This document shows positions 15,200-24,986 of a stretch of DNA of 64,000 nt, piece by piece. A model generated the notes under the pieces. It searched no databases, was not told the DNA's origin, and worked only from the letters and a program-made list of their open reading frames with translations. Within the stretch, counting starts at the first letter, position 1, and each line of letters opens with the position of its first letter. Source of the stretch: a virus (Duplodnaviria > Caudoviricetes); IMG/VR virus record IMGVR_UViG_3300043391_000853, positions 32,001-96,000 of that record; one strand, given 5' to 3'. Position numbers and translations under genes: made by a program.

Positions 15200-16291
15200 C
15201 TAGTCTTGTGCAATGAACCGCAGTGCGTCTTCTCTAGACAGTCTACCTGAGGCCATAGGGTTAGGAGGCAATTGACCGATGTCTGCTACACCAGGAGCAT
15301 TTACCGGCTGTCTATCGACGTACGCCGGGGGAGCTGTATCGTAGCTGGGTGCACTGTTCTTGATGTTTGTCGTAGCCATCGACGGGCGAGCAACCTCGAA
15401 TAATGGGCGAGCAATCTCCATCGACGGACGAGCAATCTCAATCGACGGAGCAGCTACAGGCTGAACCACAGGCTGGGCTACAGGAGCGGCGCTGGGTAAT
15501 CTTGCGCCCTGCACAGCCCTCTTTGTGAGTCCTGCGTAACCATCCATACAGTCTTCAAACACATCTGATGAATACATTTCACGCAGCTTGGCAATAATCT
15601 CCTCCTTGGACCTGTGTACAAGGATCTCGTCTAGGTTGTACAGATAATCGTTGTCAGCCAGCTGATTAGGAAGTTGTACAGGAGCATTACCGTCTACCTG
15701 CAGTACCCAAGGATTTGCACTGTTCTCCTTCAACTTAACGAAGACTGCTACACAGCGGTCAGGATCGTTAATGGGAGGCCTTTCGTTACCCATAAGATCC
15801 TTACCATCAATCCAGCTTTGTAGAATATCTGCACCATTACGGAGAGGCAGGTCAAGCACATGTGCGCCCGCTGCAAGGTTTTGAGCGAACGCAACGTTGT
15901 ACAACACACGGTCGGTTACACGACCATAGACTGGATACTTCTTGAACTTTTTCCCATTGACTTCAGCGTCCGTGACCTTGGCTTCTTCAGGGTATAGCGT
16001 CCTGAAGTGGCCTGCGAAATACTCAGCAGGATCTTCAGCCCTGTTGGGTACATAGTACTTTTCTTTAAAGTTTACACCAAAATTATCACGCACGCTAACT
16101 TTTTTGTACCAGACACCATTACCTGAACTGTCTGTTTTGTAGGCTGGAAGAAAATACAGATACGCACCGTCCTGGTTCGTATTCTTGTTGAAAGACGCCT
16201 TTCTTACTCCTTCTCTGATATAAGGTGTGGCAGATACGGTGAGATTTAGCTCTGAACCTTCGAATTTATTTGAGGGACGAATAATTGCCAT
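15200..16291 (-). CDS. probable single-stranded DNA-binding protein with Pro-rich tail
   Basis: Position next to recA; YFLPA...LYNV core resembles phage SSBs; Pro/Ala-rich C-terminus. Confidence 0.55.
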   Translation of the reverse strand: MAIIRPSNKFEGSELNLTVSATPYIREGVRKASFNKNTNQDGAYLYFLPAYKTDSSGNGVWYKKVSVRDNFGVNFKEKYYVPNRAEDPAEYFAGHFRTLYPEEAKVTDAEVNGKKFKKYPVYGRVTDRVLYNVAFAQNLAAGAHVLDLPLRNGADILQSWIDGKDLMGNERPPINDPDRCVAVFVKLKENSANPWVLQVDGNAPVQLPNQLADNDYLYNLDEILVHRSKEEIIAKLREMYSSDVFEDCMDGYAGLTKRAVQGARLPSAAPVAQPVVQPVAAPSIEIARPSMEIARPLFEVARPSMATTNIKNSAPSYDTAPPAYVDRQPVNAPGVADIGQLPPNPMASGRLSREDALRFIAQD

Positions 16292-16399: not shown

Positions 16400-16996
16400 T
16401 TAGACCATGAAGATCATTTTAGAGGTACGTTGTCCTCGTAGCTTGTTCAGAAAAGCCTGAACCATCATAGAGGCCATCACTGTCGGTAGCGTGTGGCTTA
16501 TGTTCTGCTCCTTCTCGTAGGCGAGTAGGCAGCCGCCTTCTTCCTGTGTATCGTCGATGTACTGTTTGAGCACTTCTTTCGGAAGCTCCGAATTAAACAA
16601 CGCACCCTGGCGACTCGTGCAACGCCCATCAATCCAAAAGAGCTTTTCTTTTCCTTTTTCCCATCCGTATTCATACAGTGTTTTACGGAAGGCCATACTA
16701 TCGACACAACTGAAGATGATGTCATAGTTTTTGAACTCCTTTTCCGTCATCCTCTTCTTTATACCGTTCACTACATATTTATCTTCAAGAACACTTACCT
16801 TGTACTTGCCGATATCATCAAGCTTGAAGTTCTGATGTAGCAGATTCTTAACATCGACTGTGTCGTCGTCGTAGATATCCAATTCAATCGCACTATAGTC
16901 AAACTGCTTCCTATTGAAGCCGTAGTCAAATAGTACTGCAAGCAGATTTGATCCGATCCCGCCGGCCCCGGCAATTGCAACTTTGTTAATGTTCAT
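16400..16996 (-). CDS. ThiF/E1-like ubiquitin-activating enzyme
   Basis: GAGGIGS, DDDTVDVKNLLHQ, GKYKV, SCVDSMAFR, WIDGR; candidate catalytic Cys156 (EGGCL). Confidence 0.9.
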   Translation of the reverse strand: MNINKVAIAGAGGIGSNLLAVLFDYGFNRKQFDYSAIELDIYDDDTVDVKNLLHQNFKLDDIGKYKVSVLEDKYVVNGIKKRMTEKEFKNYDIIFSCVDSMAFRKTLYEYGWEKGKEKLFWIDGRCTSRQGALFNSELPKEVLKQYIDDTQEEGGCLLAYEKEQNISHTLPTVMASMMVQAFLNKLRGQRTSKMIFMV

Positions 16997-17430
16997 TTTA
17001 ATAGTTCTAATAGTGTTGTTTTAGGTACGTAGTATGGATATGATGTGTCTCCCAGCCAAGTATTTAAGCTGTATATTTGACCTATGGGAGAATATATGAA
17101 GTTGTATACAAAACCTACAAATAAGCTATTTAAATCTAAGCTGCTTGGACTAGGACTGAAGGAGGGGTGGGTATGAAAACTAGCGTACATCTTCCACCCC
17201 TCCGATAGCTTTGAAAAGACCTTATCTTTCAGTTCAGTCAAGTCGGTCTCGTACAGACCCACAGCCTGCACTGTTCCTTTGTGTTTGTTCTTGATCTTAA
17301 TGAACAAGCGCTCCTCATCTTTGGATAGAATCAGACCGCCCTCTTCTTCCTGGGTGTGGGAACACTCTTCAGAAGCTTGCACCAGGGCAAGCACCAAGGA
17401 CTTGTTGTTTATTTGAATAATCTTATTCAT
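16993..17430 (-). CDS. JAB/JAMM (MPN+) metalloprotease
   Basis: EEEGGLIL plus complete H-x-H-x7-S-x2-D motif (HTHPSFSPSPSSLD). Confidence 0.9.
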   Translation of the reverse strand: MNKIIQINNKSLVLALVQASEECSHTQEEEGGLILSKDEERLFIKIKNKHKGTVQAVGLYETDLTELKDKVFSKLSEGWKMYASFHTHPSFSPSPSSLDLNSLFVGFVYNFIYSPIGQIYSLNTWLGDTSYPYYVPKTTLLELLK

Positions 17431-18065
17431 GCCAGCTTTGTGAATACCTGCATCAGCGTGTCTAGGGTGAGGTTGAGGTGATCCTCTACCTCTGCCAGTC
17501 TCTCCTCTGTTAGTAGCTTGTGGCAGGGGACCACAGACTGTGTCAGAGGAATATCTAGAACGTCAGTAATCTCTTTGATAGTTTCCGGATGGCTTATAGC
17601 TCCGCAAGCCCACATTTTCGCTAGATCTGTATGGGTTTCATCCTCAAGTATAGCTGTACGGTACTTATAGAACACATTGGTGAAAAAGTTCATATCGCCA
17701 TAGATTGCTGCCCTACGAGCAATAAATGGATATATAAACTTGGTACCTCTAAACGTTATGGTGCTTGCGTAAGGTTTCGTGAGTCTCTCATACAACTTAC
17801 GAAGCATGCCTTCTTCTGACAGATGGAATGAGTGCGTTAACTCTCTTTCTCCTGTAGCGGTATCTAGTAGTGCTGTAGCACACACAAAGCCTGTAGCCTC
17901 GTTGTACGCAGCATCTTCAAAATATTTATTCTTTTTTCTCTCTATATCTTCCGTAATCTTTGTAGCGTCTTTTAGATTGCTTGCAGCCTTGAAGCTGGGA
18001 GCCTTGATTATCAAATCCGCCATAGGTAGCGGAGCGGTCTCAATGTGAAGAATGAACTCTTTCAT
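17427..18065 (-). CDS. PolB/DnaQ-type 3'-5' exonuclease fold, apparently inactive
   Basis: ILHIETAP (DIET), EEGML, FRGTKFIYPFIARRA (NG..FD.PF), HTDLAKMW; catalytic Asp residues replaced. Confidence 0.65.
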   Translation of the reverse strand: MKEFILHIETAPLPMADLIIKAPSFKAASNLKDATKITEDIERKKNKYFEDAAYNEATGFVCATALLDTATGERELTHSFHLSEEGMLRKLYERLTKPYASTITFRGTKFIYPFIARRAAIYGDMNFFTNVFYKYRTAILEDETHTDLAKMWACGAISHPETIKEITDVLDIPLTQSVVPCHKLLTEERLAEVEDHLNLTLDTLMQVFTKLA

Positions 18066-18066
18066 A

Positions 18067-20142
18067 CTATTCTTTAAACTTCGTTGCAACTAAGGAGGCC
18101 ACTTTATCTTCCACAGATCTCTCGGGGGTATAGTTGTGAGCGTTCTCGGCGAAAGGCTGAGCACTACCGCTCAGTGTACGGATCTGCTCCTGCATCATAC
18201 TGTCGTTTTTGAGTGCTAGTAACCTAGCAGCAATATCGTCATAGCCTGCACCTGCATAGTGCTGGTCGTTTACGATGCAGCGATATTGCTTGGTATCGTA
18301 GTCATACACCTTTGCGTTTTCAATCACTACCGCATATGTGCGCAATGATCCCTGAACTTTGTAAGCATTCCTGCCCATGAATTCCACAATTTCTGCCTTA
18401 GTTAGACTTACAGCAGATTCAAGGAATTTTCTGGAACGTTCAAGGGCCAACCTTTTACCCTCTTGTGCAATACTTAGAAGACTGACGATATCTTCTTTGG
18501 TGATGAGCGTGGTCTCGACTTCTTTAACCGTTTTGTCTTCCTGTACAACTTTTGACTTAAAGGTACAACAATCGATAAGTATATCTACCAGCTGTTCAGC
18601 ACACCACTCCGCGTTTCTGCGACCCCAGCGCCCATAATGACCGGGACCAGGACGGGTGTGAAAACTTCTATCATCAGTCTTTTTATTCGCTGTATCAATT
18701 CGACGAATTAGTCTACCTAGCGCCACTTTTACAGCGCGCGTTTCTGAAACCTTGATCTTTACGCACCCCTCCTGCTTATCAATGAGGAATTTAATGGCTG
18801 GAGCTTTAGGGCTAGGTGTACCAGAGCTGTACTCGTCTCTCGACATGGGAGAATGAATCTTCACTTGAATACCGTTGGCAATAACATCATGCCATTTGAT
18901 ACTCATTTTAGATATACTCTTTAAAAACAACTTATACTCAGCAGCATTGTGATGGCAGCTTGCTCTATGTATCGCTTGAGCAATCTCGCCTTTATTGATG
19001 CGGACATTGTTGATGTATCTTTGCCTTGTTGTCGATATAGCTGCAGTAATGTCTATGCCGTTGATTTTAAAGGTAGGCAACTCTGACTTTGTCGCTGCAG
19101 CCTCATCTTCCTCGTTCACATTATTAACTGCCTCATCTGCAGGCTGGGCTTCTTCTTTATCTGAAGGAATCAACTTTCTTTCAATATGTGCAGCATAGGT
19201 CTCGGAGATTGTATAGATATCAAACTCCCCATTAAAGTTTAGCTTAGAGTACAGTACGTCTAGAAGATCGTCTGCCTCGATCGAAATTCTTTCGTATGTC
19301 GCTGTCGTTTTTGTCAGCGTTATATTATTAATCGTAGTCTTTTCGACGTCGCCAGCCATTAACTTACCTACAACCAACATGGTTGTATTTTTTCTGTAGT
19401 CGCTTTCAATGGCTGCAGCAGTTCTTGTGTATGTTTCCTTTACAGAGGGTGCAAGCTTTTTGAACATTCTCAGCCTGAGCATCTCAGCGTCATTACTATT
19501 AATGAAGCAGCCATTCTGCAGCATCTCTGTAAGCTTTGGTTGCAGCTTGCACATTAAAAACACATAGGCTGTGTTAATGTCGTACATGTTGCTGACAATC
19601 CACTGAGGATCTGTCTTCGCTTCTTTTAGACACATTGCATAGAAGCCTTTATCCAGATAATCGTAGATGGCTTCGTCGTTTCGAGCTACGATACATACTG
19701 CCTGAGACTTCAAGCCTTCCGTATCGACACCGGTAGCTATCCGATATGTATAGTTACCCTCCACAATCTCTGCAGGACTGTGACGAATAATCTTTGGACG
19801 GTAGTCGGTAGCAATATCTTCTGGTATCAGTTTGAGTGTTTTAAACTCTTTCGTGTAATGTGTGTCAATATCTCGTAGAGTGAGCTGCTCGATGTCAGTA
19901 GTGAGTACTACTTGTGAGTTTGCAGGTAGTCTCAATCTTCTAAGATCTGCAGGCTTAGATTTAACGAAGCTGTGCAATTTATGTGCTTTGTCGAACGCAA
20001 GACTGCTGTACTCGACAGTGTAAATTACATTATACCTCACGTCGTAATTTGTTTTGATGATTATCTCACCACCTGATGGATACTTTGCCAGACGACCAAA
20101 GTCTTTAACGATGTTTTTAAATGTGGCTATAGATACGTTCAT
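18067..20142 (-). CDS. 691-aa protein of the Ubl operon with Cys-containing C-terminal domain
   Basis: Long ORF; C-terminal VQGSLRTY...QYRCIV...DDIAARLLALKND. Confidence 0.8.
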   Translation of the reverse strand: MNVSIATFKNIVKDFGRLAKYPSGGEIIIKTNYDVRYNVIYTVEYSSLAFDKAHKLHSFVKSKPADLRRLRLPANSQVVLTTDIEQLTLRDIDTHYTKEFKTLKLIPEDIATDYRPKIIRHSPAEIVEGNYTYRIATGVDTEGLKSQAVCIVARNDEAIYDYLDKGFYAMCLKEAKTDPQWIVSNMYDINTAYVFLMCKLQPKLTEMLQNGCFINSNDAEMLRLRMFKKLAPSVKETYTRTAAAIESDYRKNTTMLVVGKLMAGDVEKTTINNITLTKTTATYERISIEADDLLDVLYSKLNFNGEFDIYTISETYAAHIERKLIPSDKEEAQPADEAVNNVNEEDEAAATKSELPTFKINGIDITAAISTTRQRYINNVRINKGEIAQAIHRASCHHNAAEYKLFLKSISKMSIKWHDVIANGIQVKIHSPMSRDEYSSGTPSPKAPAIKFLIDKQEGCVKIKVSETRAVKVALGRLIRRIDTANKKTDDRSFHTRPGPGHYGRWGRRNAEWCAEQLVDILIDCCTFKSKVVQEDKTVKEVETTLITKEDIVSLLSIAQEGKRLALERSRKFLESAVSLTKAEIVEFMGRNAYKVQGSLRTYAVVIENAKVYDYDTKQYRCIVNDQHYAGAGYDDIAARLLALKNDSMMQEQIRTLSGSAQPFAENAHNYTPERSVEDKVASLVATKFKE

Positions 20143-20175
20143 AGTATTAGATAATATAGATATAGATGTTTAATG

Positions 20176-20215
20176 AAAAAGGGCCCCTGATGTAATACAC
20201 ACCAGGGGCCCTTTT
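20176..20215. terminator. bidirectional intrinsic terminator downstream of the Ubl gene
   Basis: AAAAA-GGGCCCCTG-13nt-CAGGGGCCC-TTTT. Confidence 0.85.
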
Positions 20216-20235
20216 ATTTACCGCTGAGGGTACGG

Positions 20236-20556
20236 CTAGATTTCGCCGCCAACCAACACACCGGTAAGCAGCACTGCAGGATCCTGGAAGGCTTCAAGCT
20301 TGCCCTTCAGCTTCTGCACGTTTGCCTCTGTACGGAACTTGCCTCCGTCAAATTCAAACTTCTCACCATTGATAAATACCCAACGGGCATTGTTCTCGGC
20401 GTTTTCAATGATGCTGTCCACGGCCTGGTTGATGTCCAGGTCGGCCAGTGTAGTGTGCCCTGTGCGATCAGCGATGTCGATCTTGTATGTGTTGTTCATG
20501 GCGGTGTTGTTGCTGTTGATGACTTCGTTGTTAACTGCAGTGATTTCGGTGTTCAT
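20236..20556 (-). CDS. ubiquitin-like (beta-grasp) protein, pro-form ending GG-EI
   Basis: Strand YKIDIADRTG, helix, WVFING, final strand AVLLTGVLVGG plus EI; linked to E1 and JAB genes. Confidence 0.8.
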   Translation of the reverse strand: MNTEITAVNNEVINSNNTAMNNTYKIDIADRTGHTTLADLDINQAVDSIIENAENNARWVFINGEKFEFDGGKFRTEANVQKLKGKLEAFQDPAVLLTGVLVGGEI

Positions 20557-21544: not shown

Positions 21545-22276
21545 TTATCTGTGAATCGGGAATTGGATGTGTCTTATTTTCCCGCTCTTGAGAGGACGAT
21601 CGATGCATGCTCTACAACGAGCACATGCACCCTTATCTTCATTTTTTTTCATCTTTCCTGTAACCTCAGGACATATCAATCTAGCTCTATCTTCAGGTAA
21701 ATCACTGGGAGGTGTATTACCCATCCAAGCTATCGCCACATTGGCATAATCTTTATACTTCTCGTATACCGCCAGTACCTTATCTTTATTGATCGGATCG
21801 CAGCTCAACATCAGTGTGAGGTTACGAAGATCCGCCAACAATGGGACAGCAAAAAGAGACCTGGTGTAGGCCCAGAAGCGCACTTCAGGTCTCTTTTTGA
21901 TGGCCGTGGCCCAGGCTGTAGTATAGCTCTCGTCAAAGAACTCTCCTCCGGTATGTATCCTAAAGTATGGTTCGGTGTGTCCTCCGTTAAGAAGCCACTT
22001 ATCTACGCTGTTTTCTATCACCTGCAGGTGCTCTTCAAATGACTTACCCCACACCAAGGACGTGTTATAGTCCTCAGATTCGGAGTATTTCTTATACAGC
22101 TTCCTAAGGTTTACGTCGTAGCACTTACCTACACAGCCTCCCTCTCCTACAGTAGCGTTAACACAAGTACCTCCATCCTCTGGACGGCCTGAGGCGAGAC
22201 TGAATGTATTATCGTGATTCTTACGAAATCTTACCTTGCTGTTGTTGGTTAACTTAAAACTTACGTACTTATTCAT
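21545..22276 (-). CDS. Gp88-like (radical-SAM-related Fe-S) protein
   Basis: TFSL...TC-x8-C-x3-CY, FRIHTGGEF, FWAYTR, ICP...CARCRAC. Confidence 0.8.
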   Translation of the reverse strand: MNKYVSFKLTNNSKVRFRKNHDNTFSLASGRPEDGGTCVNATVGEGGCVGKCYDVNLRKLYKKYSESEDYNTSLVWGKSFEEHLQVIENSVDKWLLNGGHTEPYFRIHTGGEFFDESYTTAWATAIKKRPEVRFWAYTRSLFAVPLLADLRNLTLMLSCDPINKDKVLAVYEKYKDYANVAIAWMGNTPPSDLPEDRARLICPEVTGKMKKNEDKGACARCRACIDRPLKSGKIRHIQFPIHR

Positions 22277-22277
22277 A

Positions 22278-24986
22278 CTACTCTTTCCATTCCCAAATAT
22301 TCTTTTCAAAGTTCCAAGCAGTCTCTTTCTCGAATATCTTTTCTTTACCTTTCCATCTATCCATGATCATAAGCTCGCAACCTACATTATCTCCAGTGGC
22401 TAGCTTTGTCTCATGACAGAACACATGCTTCAACAGCTCTTGAATATAGTTACCCTTCACAAGGTCTTTGTGAACTGCCCAGTAGCCTGCATCATGTACA
22501 GTATTGACTGGATATATGTAGCGCATCCATAGGTTATCTTTCTTGAGTAGATCTTTTAGCTTCACAGATGCTTCCCACATGAACCATGCAAGCTCACTGG
22601 CTACAGGGAACGCCAGGCTTTCGTTCATCCAGCCTGCCAAGATACCGAAGTTTTCCGTATCTTCGTAGTTTAACACCAATCCTCTAGCGTTGGTTATGCG
22701 GCGATGCTTTTCCACTTCCTGTGTACATTTGTCTCTATACTGCATGTACTTTTCATATCGTGTCCAAGTATCGAGAGCATACTCGAGCGTACCTAGTCCT
22801 ACATGCAAACCATTCTCTGCATAGATATCTGCTTGAATAGGTACAGCTGCAAACTTTAATCCTGCTGTATACGACACACGGAAAGTAATACTTTTCGCGA
22901 TAACATATTTACTTACATCTTTTTTAGTGAGTGTAGGGTCATTAAAATACTCACGCATTTTTGTTTGGTGAAAATTACCTGACCGAATATCGTGGATGAA
23001 TCCTTGATCCTGACTAAGAAAGGCCATAATCGCTAGATCGGCCCCTGCAACATCAAGCTCTGTCCAGTAGTAATCTTTGTGGCCTGGGCAAAATATGTTC
23101 CTGATGTTTTTGGGTAGCAGATGACTCACATTTTTCTGCTCATCGCTATTGAAGTTATTGTAGCCTGGTACAAATATATCAGGAATGTACGCCAAAACCT
23201 TAGATGCAGGGTTCTGTACATTGGGACTGCTACTCGCCCTGAAGTTTTTCAAGCACTCGAAGAAACTTGCATGCACACGACCATCATTGCATATCGCTGC
23301 CCAGTAGCTTTGCTTCAAGGGCTCCTCGTCATCATCTTCGTGCTCGATTTCGTCCGCAGAGTGTATACCTTTCTTGCTCAGAAATTTTGTAGCGAATACC
23401 CCAATCCTACTAACACTAAGCAGTAGTGTAATAGCTTTGTGTGTGGCCTCAAGCTTCTCAAAATTATCCGTATCAGATCTATCGAACTTGGCGATTAGCT
23501 CTTCGATCTGAAATTTTATAGTACTAAGACTTTTGCCGTTAGTACTAGGCTCATACATCTTTTGAGTTTGAAACTTTTGCTTATCGTACCAAACCTTACT
23601 CTTGGGAGACTTACCGCTCTTTGTGTAGTAGGCCGGAGTCACATTCAAGACGTCAAACAAAAGACTCTTTTTTTGCGGCGCACTGTTGGGATTAAAATCA
23701 TCGACCCCAAAACGCTCCTTCAAAAAGGTGACAAGCTCTAATCTGAGTTCGTCGTATTTCTTGCTATACTTTTCAGTGATATCCTCTAGTACGTCCTTAT
23801 CTATACCTATACCTGTCAACTCCATGTCAGTGAAGTAGTGGGTTAATGGTAAATATATATTATAGTAGGCATCCTTTAAATGCTCTGGAAAAGAGGCCAT
23901 CATGCGTAGGCATGCCTCCCTATGACTGACTGCATCTCCAGCACAATATTTATAATATATATCAGGCTCAAGAAACTTCATCTTTGCAAGCTCCGCTTTA
24001 CCGAGCTTGTGTTCTTTCATCTTTCTATTTAGTGCAGTATAGTACGGTTCATAGTTTGTGAAAGACTTTATACCTGTCTCCAGCCCTTTACTCATTCTCG
24101 AATCGAAGAACGCCACAGCCTTCATACCGTCAAAGGCAAGTGTTTCATCAGGGAGGTTAAAGCCTCTGTGTCTAAGACGCAGATCGTCCGCCCGCACATT
24201 CCAACCTAATCTCTTGGCTTCAGGGTGCTCCAGTAGAGGCTTCATCGTATCTAGAAGCTCTCTATTTTCAGTTATACCATCTTTGCTAATGTTGAGAACT
24301 ATAGCCACGTCAGGCTGACAACTGTATTGGAACTCATACATCACCTCGTCATCAGTGAATTTTGAGCCGAACCACTCAGCGTCATAGCCTACAGTCAGCA
24401 TCCCTTTGCTTATGTATTTTTCTATATAAATACGGTTCTCTTCAGGATCATCTACTACAAAATAATTGTAGTGTTTATATTTGAGTGTTCCGTCCAATAC
24501 TTTTTTAGCTAGTAGAAACGTCTCCCTGAACTCTGGTCTCTTTGTAGGATCCATGACCACAATCATGCCTGGAGCATAGTTTGCCAGCACTTTGCCGTAG
24601 CTGCTGTCAATCAGTTCTCCAATATAATCACCCATCTTGGTGTTTGCTCGCATCACCCTTTTGAAGACCTCTGCCCCCATAGGCATAATCAGTTTAGGTT
24701 TGAGTTCTGCGATCTCAGCATCTAGCGCAGCACTCCATTCCTCAATATCTTCAGCGGAGGGTTTTGGTTTGCTGCCAATGCCGCACTTCACCATACCTGT
24801 GAAATGTACACGCGAAAGGGGAATATCTGCCGCGCTAAGGGCCGAAAGTACCTCCGCAGCCATATCTCCCTTTGTGCCGAAGGCTCTGGCCTCCAAGTCG
24901 TCTTTATTTGGATGACTGAACACAATCAGTAGCTCAGGTTGCGCCCCCTTTTTTAAGACGTTTTCTACTTTGACTTTATCGGACAT
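22278..24986 (-). CDS. polA: family A DNA polymerase with N-terminal UDG-like and 3'-5' exonuclease domains
   Basis: UDG-like N-terminus (VKC...EIAELKPKLIMPMG); exo GYDAE, YCAGDA; ME.TGI; PNVQN; motifs A/B/C ELDVAGAD, AKSITF..SY, VHDA. Confidence 0.88.
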   Translation of the reverse strand: MSDKVKVENVLKKGAQPELLIVFSHPNKDDLEARAFGTKGDMAAEVLSALSAADIPLSRVHFTGMVKCGIGSKPKPSAEDIEEWSAALDAEIAELKPKLIMPMGAEVFKRVMRANTKMGDYIGELIDSSYGKVLANYAPGMIVVMDPTKRPEFRETFLLAKKVLDGTLKYKHYNYFVVDDPEENRIYIEKYISKGMLTVGYDAEWFGSKFTDDEVMYEFQYSCQPDVAIVLNISKDGITENRELLDTMKPLLEHPEAKRLGWNVRADDLRLRHRGFNLPDETLAFDGMKAVAFFDSRMSKGLETGIKSFTNYEPYYTALNRKMKEHKLGKAELAKMKFLEPDIYYKYCAGDAVSHREACLRMMASFPEHLKDAYYNIYLPLTHYFTDMELTGIGIDKDVLEDITEKYSKKYDELRLELVTFLKERFGVDDFNPNSAPQKKSLLFDVLNVTPAYYTKSGKSPKSKVWYDKQKFQTQKMYEPSTNGKSLSTIKFQIEELIAKFDRSDTDNFEKLEATHKAITLLLSVSRIGVFATKFLSKKGIHSADEIEHEDDDEEPLKQSYWAAICNDGRVHASFFECLKNFRASSSPNVQNPASKVLAYIPDIFVPGYNNFNSDEQKNVSHLLPKNIRNIFCPGHKDYYWTELDVAGADLAIMAFLSQDQGFIHDIRSGNFHQTKMREYFNDPTLTKKDVSKYVIAKSITFRVSYTAGLKFAAVPIQADIYAENGLHVGLGTLEYALDTWTRYEKYMQYRDKCTQEVEKHRRITNARGLVLNYEDTENFGILAGWMNESLAFPVASELAWFMWEASVKLKDLLKKDNLWMRYIYPVNTVHDAGYWAVHKDLVKGNYIQELLKHVFCHETKLATGDNVGCELMIMDRWKGKEKIFEKETAWNFEKNIWEWKE

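Follow-up and report, generated by a model that had tools for sequence, protein, structure and literature searches.

Introduction

To our knowledge, all characterised cases of the conjugation of ubiquitin-like proteins (Ubls) in prokaryotes belong either to host-side immunity, namely the CBASS Cap2/Cap3, Bil and Bub systems, or to sulfur chemistry. Two further sets of proteins, archaeal SAMP/UbaA/HvJAMM1 and Thermus TtuB/TtuC, are known to operate without E2. In Type II Bil, the Ubl (BilA) bears a conserved Gly followed by a few unconserved residues, and the removal of these residues by BilC encoded in the same operon was shown experimentally (PMC10557695). On the phage side, TAPI of lambda and T1, a Ubl with a conserved terminal Gly, adjoins the JAB-NlpC/P60 protein TAPK (Iyer et al. 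2006, PMC1779556). Here we describe a gene cassette for a putative Ubl conjugation pathway at positions 16400-20556 of a 64,000-nucleotide stretch (the window) of the virus record IMGVR_UViG_3300043391_000853. The window corresponds to bases 32001-96000 of this 149,817-bp IMG/VR record, which is 76% complete by CheckV.

An earlier note made from the sequence of the window alone described five co-oriented genes, of which the last four abut or overlap. This layout was verified: five open reading frames lie in the same direction on the minus strand, within the range given in that note, the last four are linked by overlaps of 23, 4 and 4 nucleotides, and a gap of 93 nucleotides separates the first gene from the second. 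They encode a Ubl precursor, a large protein of 691 residues, an exonuclease-like protein, a JAB/JAMM metallopeptidase and a minimal E1. With moderate confidence, we propose that the cassette represents a virus-encoded pathway for conjugating a Ubl to proteins, which is similar to Bil in how it would work but is built from different protein families, those of the Ubl and the E2-like protein being undescribed. No report of a phage-encoded E1/E2/Ubl/JAB cassette came up in a full-text literature search of incomplete coverage, which retrieved only the host-side systems and TAPI-TAPK of lambda and T1.

The Ubl precursor and the hairpin behind its gene

The first gene (20236..20556, minus strand) encodes a protein of 106 residues with the C-terminus ...VLLTGVLVGG-EI. 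A word-seeded search recovered 44 homologues of this protein. When aligned, these proteins show a variable, Asn-rich N-terminus and a well-conserved core, which always closes with LLTG-x-L-x-GG. The earlier note had staked its reading on the conservation of the Gly-Gly (GG) pair, and both G103 and G104 turned out to be invariant; GG was kept in all 46 homologues compared, two distant ones included. The residues past GG are not conserved and vary in number from 0 to 32, with 2 of the 46 sequences stopping at GG and 22 having two extra residues. An invariant GG with a tail behind it that is not conserved marks a Ubl precursor at the level of the primary sequence, and the two-residue tail (EI) of the protein in the window is predicted to be the removable part. 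In the same note, the two residues past GG were taken to require JAB for their removal. The variability of the tail across the family supports tagging by a Ubl, but the argument that such residues imply protein tagging is not decisive, as JAMM proteases are known to trim the tails of sulfur carriers as well (QbsE/QbsD and CysO/Mec).

The AlphaFold2 model of the 106-residue protein (predicted local distance difference test score, pLDDT, of 74.6) showed the b-b-a-b-b-a-b order of elements with a flexible GG tail, and its beta-grasp core spans about residues 24-98. The structural neighbours of the model were ubiquitin, ISG15, SUMO and PB1; the scores were modest, albeit the lists were uniform and residues ~18-104 were covered. 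Neither ThiS nor MoaD appeared among the listed structural matches. Altogether, the predicted fold and the lists of neighbours agree with the beta-grasp-like pattern reported for this protein in the earlier note. No family was assigned to the Ubl in the Pfam, PHROG, PADLOC and NCBIfam searches. The profile searches of the PDB with the Ubl and the large protein returned matches to ankyrin and chymopapain only, which we took as chance, and the comparison with the ESM Atlas yielded nothing informative for either protein. We looked for fused forms of the Ubl and found none, which is weak evidence.

A perfect, GC-rich hairpin of 18 bp sits directly past the stop codon of the Ubl gene and is followed by UUUUUC (20170..20215 on the minus strand, with the hairpin itself at 20215..20177; -31.2 kcal/mol and a z-score of -7.6 in the RNA fold). 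A GC hairpin with a U-run occupies the same intergenic gap in the related loci L003-L007, L012 and L013, in which the sequences of the stem differ from one another. Thus, each of the eight loci examined, the window included, has a terminator-like hairpin behind its Ubl gene. A consensus RNA scan did not detect the hairpin after the Ubl gene. The element looks like a conserved terminator or attenuator and probably sets a high ratio of the Ubl to the enzymes encoded downstream. A large excess of the Ubl over the enzymes would suit a tag that is consumed stoichiometrically.

The JAB metallopeptidase and the minimal E1

The fourth gene of the cassette (16993..17430, minus strand) encodes a metallopeptidase of 145 residues that matched Pfam Prok-JAB at 30.2 bits (E-value of 4.4e-7), above the cut-off of 25. 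E28/E29, H86, H88, S96 and D99 are invariant in six orthologues and together constitute a full E...HxHx7Sx2D site. Both the exact pattern and the Pfam score above the cut-off confirm the complete motif reported for this protein in the earlier note. The protein also matched the JAB models of PADLOC (E-values down to 9e-6), with a weak match to the model of CBASS Cap3, and its closest match in the PDB was AfJAMM of Archaeoglobus. The JAB protein is predicted from its motif to trim the tail of the Ubl and to reverse conjugation.

The last gene (16400..16996, minus strand) encodes an E1 of 198 residues, which matched Pfam ThiF at 70 bits (E-value of 2.2e-19; cut-off of 28.1). This protein consists of a single adenylation domain with GAGGIG and an invariant Asp99, and possesses no rhodanese, UFD or separate Cys domain. 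It contains only three cysteines (97, 126 and 156), and hence neither a CxxC pair nor a Zn site. Cys156 (codon 16529-16531) is invariant in 7 sequences, including a homologue in a Flavobacterium phage that is 31% identical. The three features listed for this enzyme in the earlier note, that is, GAGGIG, Cys156 as a candidate thioester residue and no CxxC pairs, were all verified. By the layout of MoeB and ThiF, Cys156 falls in the crossover loop, past the adenylation core and ahead of the last helices, where UBA5, ThiF and MoeB bear their reactive Cys. The position of this residue would allow it to accept an acyl group, and its use in catalysis is predicted.

In the profile search of the PDB with the E1, UBA3 came first (6.7e-9) and UBA2 followed (9e-6), and MccB, TcdA, UBA5 and Cap2 were found behind them; neither MoeB nor ThiF was matched at an E-value of 1e-3 or below. 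UBA3 and UBA2 are subunits of the E1s for NEDD8 and SUMO, respectively. Judging from these matches, the phage protein resembles the NEDD8/SUMO E1s more than MoeB or ThiF. Among the NCBIfam models, PRTRC_ThiF was the best (1.8e-13) and ThiF was the next, both far under their cut-offs. The best among the PADLOC models were those of the CBASS E1-E2 protein (Cap2; 3e-5).

The large protein and its Cys622 domain

The second gene (18067..20142, minus strand) encodes the large protein of the cassette, for which we found 493 representative clusters at an E-value of 1e-3 or below among 1.8 billion representatives. The N-terminal ~250 residues are variable and the conserved middle module bears an invariant Cys396 (codon 18955-18957). 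The distant members of the family, 600-790 residues in length, keep only two modules, at ~260-440 and ~540-655. Across 30 members, of which the most divergent are 18% identical, nine residues are invariant, namely R134, D164, C396, G424, L574, Y603, C622, D647 and T656.

We obtained an AlphaFold2 model of the large protein with a pLDDT of 85.2. The model of residues 549-690 begins with a long helix and continues with four strands, a loop with Cys622 and helices, and this is the order of the elements in the UBC domain. Cys622 (codon 18277-18279), invariant in the 30 members, lies eight residues past the strand of 612-614, in the loop after strand 4. The C-terminal domain (residues ~549-690; 18073..18498, minus strand) repeatedly matched the UBC/UEV/RWD fold in the structural comparison at low scores, which are partly due to comparing the whole 691-residue model instead of the isolated domain. 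No match in the PDB was retrieved in the Foldseek search with the model of the large protein. Considering the fold and the position of the cysteine, we regard residues ~549-690 as probably a UBC/RWD-like Cys domain that acts as E2 and as a candidate member of this superfamily, with Cys622 being a candidate catalytic residue. Likewise, the large protein as a whole is probably an E2 or an E2/E3 hybrid. In the Foldseek search of BFVD, the same model was matched by three viral proteins of 416-452 residues (A0A516LSW3, A0A516M0H5 and A0A516MG04; E-values of 2-4e-6, probability of 1.0), which, as far as the models tell, are related to the large protein in structure but shorter.

The sole profile match of the Cys622 domain was Pfam DUF7737 (PF24879), which stayed below the threshold (18-21 bits against 27 bits) with an E-value of 4e-4 for the isolated domain and 3.4e-5 in the genome search. 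Searches of the entire large protein against Pfam, PHROG, PADLOC and NCBIfam gave nothing apart from this sub-threshold match. The control genomes matched in the DUF7737 search overlap with those matched in the DUF4132 search, and the large protein itself contains no DUF4132 domain. In bacteria, DUF4132 proteins are often encoded near the genes for MoxR-type AAA, VWA and WGR proteins.

Conservation of the cassette among related viruses

The earlier note had proposed synteny in related phages as a check, and the gene order indeed recurred in five close contigs and in two that are much more distant. The five close contigs share the order of PolA, GP88, (a 287-residue protein), Ubl, the large protein, (the exonuclease-like protein), JAB, E1, a 363-residue protein and RecA, in which the large protein is 42-52% identical. 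Among the close relatives, E1, PolA and RecA are ~75-89% identical, and the Ubl, JAB and the large protein ~41-73%. L012, in which the large protein is 32% identical, carries the genes for GP88, a 221-residue protein, a Ubl of 88 residues (...ILTGKLQGG-AQ at the C-terminus), the large protein, JAB, DUF8296, ThiF, two small proteins and RecA in this order. L013, with the large protein being 21% identical, carries those for GP88, a 203-residue protein, a Ubl of 101 residues (...GTLAGG-CRR at the C-terminus) and the large protein, after which the contig ends. In another distant locus, the genes for the large protein, a 72-residue protein and JAB are arranged in this order.

From the comparison of the close and distant loci, the core set of the cassette is Ubl, the large protein, JAB and E1, held between GP88/PolA and RecA. 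Besides these core genes, one or two variable slots in the operon seem to hold accessory genes, and the DUF8296 gene mentioned above stands between those of JAB and E1 at L012:7652-8083. The conserved synteny and the invariant motifs rule out chance or an artefact as the explanation for the cassette.

Neither the region nor the 691-residue protein had a relative among 50,697 deposited phage genomes, searched at both the DNA and the protein level, and only distant homologues of the E1 were matched there. Two conserved patterns of the large protein had no match in 185,579 species genomes of bacteria and archaea.

Two phages, the crAss-like phage cr111_1 (L010:3637-5642) and the Flavobacterium phage FpV4 (L001:4686-6618), encode a protein of 415-423 residues with a weak Prok-JAB match directly upstream of an E1 of the ThiF family, which is distantly homologous to that of the cassette. 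These JAB-E1 pairs are located in the replication module near the genes for primase and uracil-DNA glycosylase, and the E1 is annotated publicly as a 'thiamine biosynthesis protein'. At the two loci, we identified no Ubl and no homologue of the large protein. We considered the upstream proteins of ~420 residues as kin of the large protein and rejected this idea, as hhalign of the profiles showed no similarity. We also set aside gp246c of Salmonella phage Arash (L009:3499-4539; 346 residues, annotated as a 'structural protein'), of which only the first ~70 residues containing the Rossmann GxGxxG matched the E1 (37% identity). This match probably reflects a shared nucleotide-binding fold only.

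The exonuclease-like accessory gene and the flanking genes

The third gene of the cassette (17427..18089, minus strand) encodes a protein of 220 residues. Three weak but mutually consistent matches, to Pfam RNase_H_2 (E-value of 0.045), the exonuclease region of PolB in NCBIfam (0.0013) and the ExoII region of Pol epsilon in the PDB (0.07), point to the ExoII region of the exonucleases of B-family polymerases. In three orthologues, ExoI reads H-I-E and not D-x-E, and in the counterpart of ExoII of Pol epsilon, Asn and Asp are replaced by Arg and Ile/Tyr. An inactivated exonuclease fold of the DEDD/PolB type is thus plausible for this protein on the basis of its motifs, although weakly founded. 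Among the close loci, three of six have the gene, namely the window, L006 and L007, and it is absent from L003, L004 and L005. The dead exonuclease described in the earlier note is therefore retained as a plausible but weak assignment, and its place in the core of the cassette was rejected, as three of the five close relatives lack the gene.

Upstream of the cassette, the genes for a family-A DNA polymerase, a GP88-family protein and a 287-residue protein without family assignment were found, while a 363-residue protein without family assignment and then a RecA/UvsX recombinase are encoded downstream. The earlier note named PolA, a single-stranded DNA-binding protein (SSB) and RecA as the neighbours. 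The profile matches uphold PolA and RecA, but no Pfam or PHROG model supports the SSB label of the 363-residue protein. The gene for this protein (15200-16291, minus strand), located between those of E1 and RecA, is conserved, and its product has a repetitive segment rich in Pro and Ala and an acidic C-terminus. The family-A polymerase (22278-24986, minus strand) is fused to an N-terminal domain of the uracil-DNA glycosylase superfamily (residues ~16-157). The Cys-rich GP88-family (PF17338) gene lies at 21545-22309 on the minus strand, two genes upstream of the Ubl gene, and is found at this position as far out as L012 and L013, the most distant loci. Because of this constancy, the GP88 gene may be functionally tied to the cassette.

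The proposed pathway and its alternatives

We propose the following scheme for the cassette. The Ubl precursor would be made in excess because its gene has its own terminator, and the JAB peptidase would cut off the unconserved tail past the invariant Gly-Gly. The minimal E1 would then adenylate the exposed Gly, probably holding the Ubl on Cys156 in the crossover loop, and the Ubl would be handed to Cys622 in the UBC-like domain at the C-terminus of the large protein, which would work as an E2 or E2/E3 hybrid. The conserved middle module with Cys396 is a possible second relay or catalytic site, and the fast-evolving N-terminal third of the large protein may select the substrate. JAB may also take the tag off. 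The view of the earlier note, in which the phage runs Ubl tagging of its own, gained support from what was shown above of the genes in the set, of their motifs and folds, and of how they are conserved and arranged in related loci; it is from these that we infer every chemical step, as well as the existence of conjugates. As the set has been fixed in a replication/recombination module over deep divergence, we find it more likely that the cassette helps the phage to replicate, recombine or control its development than that it is a dispensable counter-defence. Replication proteins or host defence factors as the targets are a matter of speculation.

Several observations weigh against this scheme. 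On the side of the large protein, neither UQ_con nor any of Prok-E2_A-E in Pfam matched the isolated Cys622 domain even at an E-value of 10 or below, and no HPN motif precedes Cys622 in the alignment. On the side of the E1, the Arg of the NLxRQ motif, which contacts ATP, is His54 in the phage protein and is kept as such in six close orthologues, and the Cys, UFD and inactive adenylation domains of the canonical and Bil E1s are lacking. Moreover, Ubl, E1 and JAMM by themselves are equally typical of sulfur-carrier systems, and a record that is 76% complete comes from a virus that could use the sulfur enzymes of its host. We thus considered a sulfur carrier, in which the trimmed Ubl would be converted into a thiocarboxylate and donate sulfur to a small molecule, tRNA or phage DNA, with the large protein and its two invariant cysteines being the acceptor or inserter of sulfur. 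The earlier note argued against such a role from the lack of sulfur-transfer genes in the window. This lack extends to the 149,817-bp record, in which no match to PF00581 (rhodanese), PF00266 (Aminotran_5/desulfurase), PF02391 (MoaE) or PF01171 (PP-loop) was found. Nevertheless, with an incomplete record and possible help from host enzymes, the lack of a rhodanese, cysteine desulfurase, MoaE or PP-loop ATPase across ~150 kb weakens the sulfur-carrier explanation without removing it. Further points against it are an E1 that lacks both a rhodanese domain and a Zn site and for which the PDB matches at an E-value of 1e-3 or below include UBA3 and UBA2 but neither MoeB nor ThiF, a Ubl of which the structural neighbours among the listed matches are modifiers and not ThiS or MoaD, and a Cys622 domain that is UBC/RWD-like in appearance. 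We therefore regard a sulfur carrier as unlikely.

The points against an E2 function of the large protein also bear on tagging of the SAMP/TtuB/Urm1 type, for which the Ubl, E1 and JAB would suffice, as SAMP and TtuB need no E2. In such a case, the large protein would be a dedicated substrate, scaffold or effector, for instance, a replication protein switched by the Ubl. A protein that bears no E2 signature at the sequence level, has low fold scores and matches, below the threshold, only DUF7737, a domain with no function assigned, agrees with this idea. On the other hand, the invariance of Cys622 and Cys396 over deep divergence suggests catalysis rather than a Lys acceptor, Cys622 past strand 4 of an alpha-beta4-alpha domain is where the Cys of E2 is located, and the gene for the large protein always stands between the Ubl gene and those for JAB and E1. 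Tagging without E2 is, in our judgement, even less probable than a sulfur carrier. We assign the lowest probability to a device that counters CBASS Cap2/Cap3, Bil or Bub of the host, in which JAB would strip the conjugates made by the host or the Ubl would inactivate defence proteins, albeit this overlaps with the mechanism proposed above. JAB matches the PADLOC JAB models and, weakly, that of CBASS Cap3, the E1 matches the PADLOC E1-E2 (Cap2) models at 3e-5, and the characterised bacterial relatives act in the conflict between phages and hosts (PMC10557695). However, genes for counter-defence are usually patchy and mobile, whereas this cassette is fixed in the PolA-RecA module while the large protein diverges to ~20% identity, and its own Ubl and putative E2 would be superfluous for a simple deconjugase.

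A broader version of the conjugation pathway may be put forward tentatively, with somewhat more doubt than belief. In a large clade of uncultured phages with genomes of ~150-290 kb, a complete Ubl cascade would be core to replication and recombination, comprising a Ubl precursor, a JAB for its maturation and for deconjugation, the smallest E1 yet seen and a new E2/E3 hybrid with a relay from Cys622 to Cys396, and would tag phage replication proteins or host factors; the JAB-E1 pairs of the Flavobacterium and crAss-like phages would be variant forms of this ancient viral system, or what is left of it. Should this hold, viruses would be a major overlooked reservoir of ubiquitin-type signalling. 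If the conjugation pathway proposed for the cassette is true, phages put the tagging of proteins to use in a life cycle of their own, and a very small E1 and a new family of Cys domains related to DUF7737 become available for mechanistic study. The function of the bacterial DUF4132/DUF7737 proteins, so far unexplained, would also become easier to approach. The question of where the systems of E1, E2 and deubiquitinase originated and by what route they passed between viruses and cells is touched by the cassette as well.

Comparison with known systems

The Bil system (BilABCD; Chambers et al., PMC10557695; Hor et al., bioRxiv 10.1101/2023.09.04.556158) shares with the cassette the logic of Ubl, E2, JAB and E1, with the E2 of the cassette being putative. 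In both, the Ubl has a conserved Gly and a removable tail, and the Ubl and E1 are closer to the eukaryotic modifiers and E1s than to ThiS/ThiF. The two systems differ in that the E1 of Bil has an inactive and an active adenylation domain with a helical Cys-domain insertion and its E2 is a stand-alone protein of ~150 residues. In addition, Bil is encoded by the host and acts against phages, while the cassette lies on a phage record between PolA and RecA.

SAMP/UbaA/HvJAMM1 and TtuB/TtuC with JAMM resemble the cassette in the small beta-grasp protein ending in GG, the single-domain E1 of the MoeB/ThiF type and JAMM, and a dual role as a sulfur carrier and a modifier is possible. In contrast to these systems, the cassette always has the protein with the UBC/RWD-like Cys domain and encodes no partners for sulfur relay. 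The match between the UbaA model and the cassette E1 was negligible (E-value of 0.011; cut-off of 450 bits). PRTRC, found on plasmids and integrative and conjugative elements (NCBIfam TIGR03734-03742), supplied the best NCBIfam match of the E1 and is likewise a part of mobile elements beside genes for DNA maintenance. Nevertheless, the E1 scored 50.4 bits against the cut-off of 144.75 bits (TIGR03736), the other four proteins matched no PRTRC model, and no ParB is encoded nearby.

Eukaryotic UBE2O and BIRC6 are large, multidomain E2/E3 hybrids, in which a UBC-type Cys domain close to the C-terminus is preceded by regions that bind the substrate. The large protein is similar to them in architecture alone, as no sequence relationship was detected and the phage domain has no HPN. 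TAPI/TAPK is the one long-published case of a Ubl and JAB in phages; it belongs to the tail module, has neither E1 nor E2, and its Ubl is fused to another domain. The cassette described here differs from TAPI/TAPK in possessing an E1 and an E2-like protein and in being located in the replication module.

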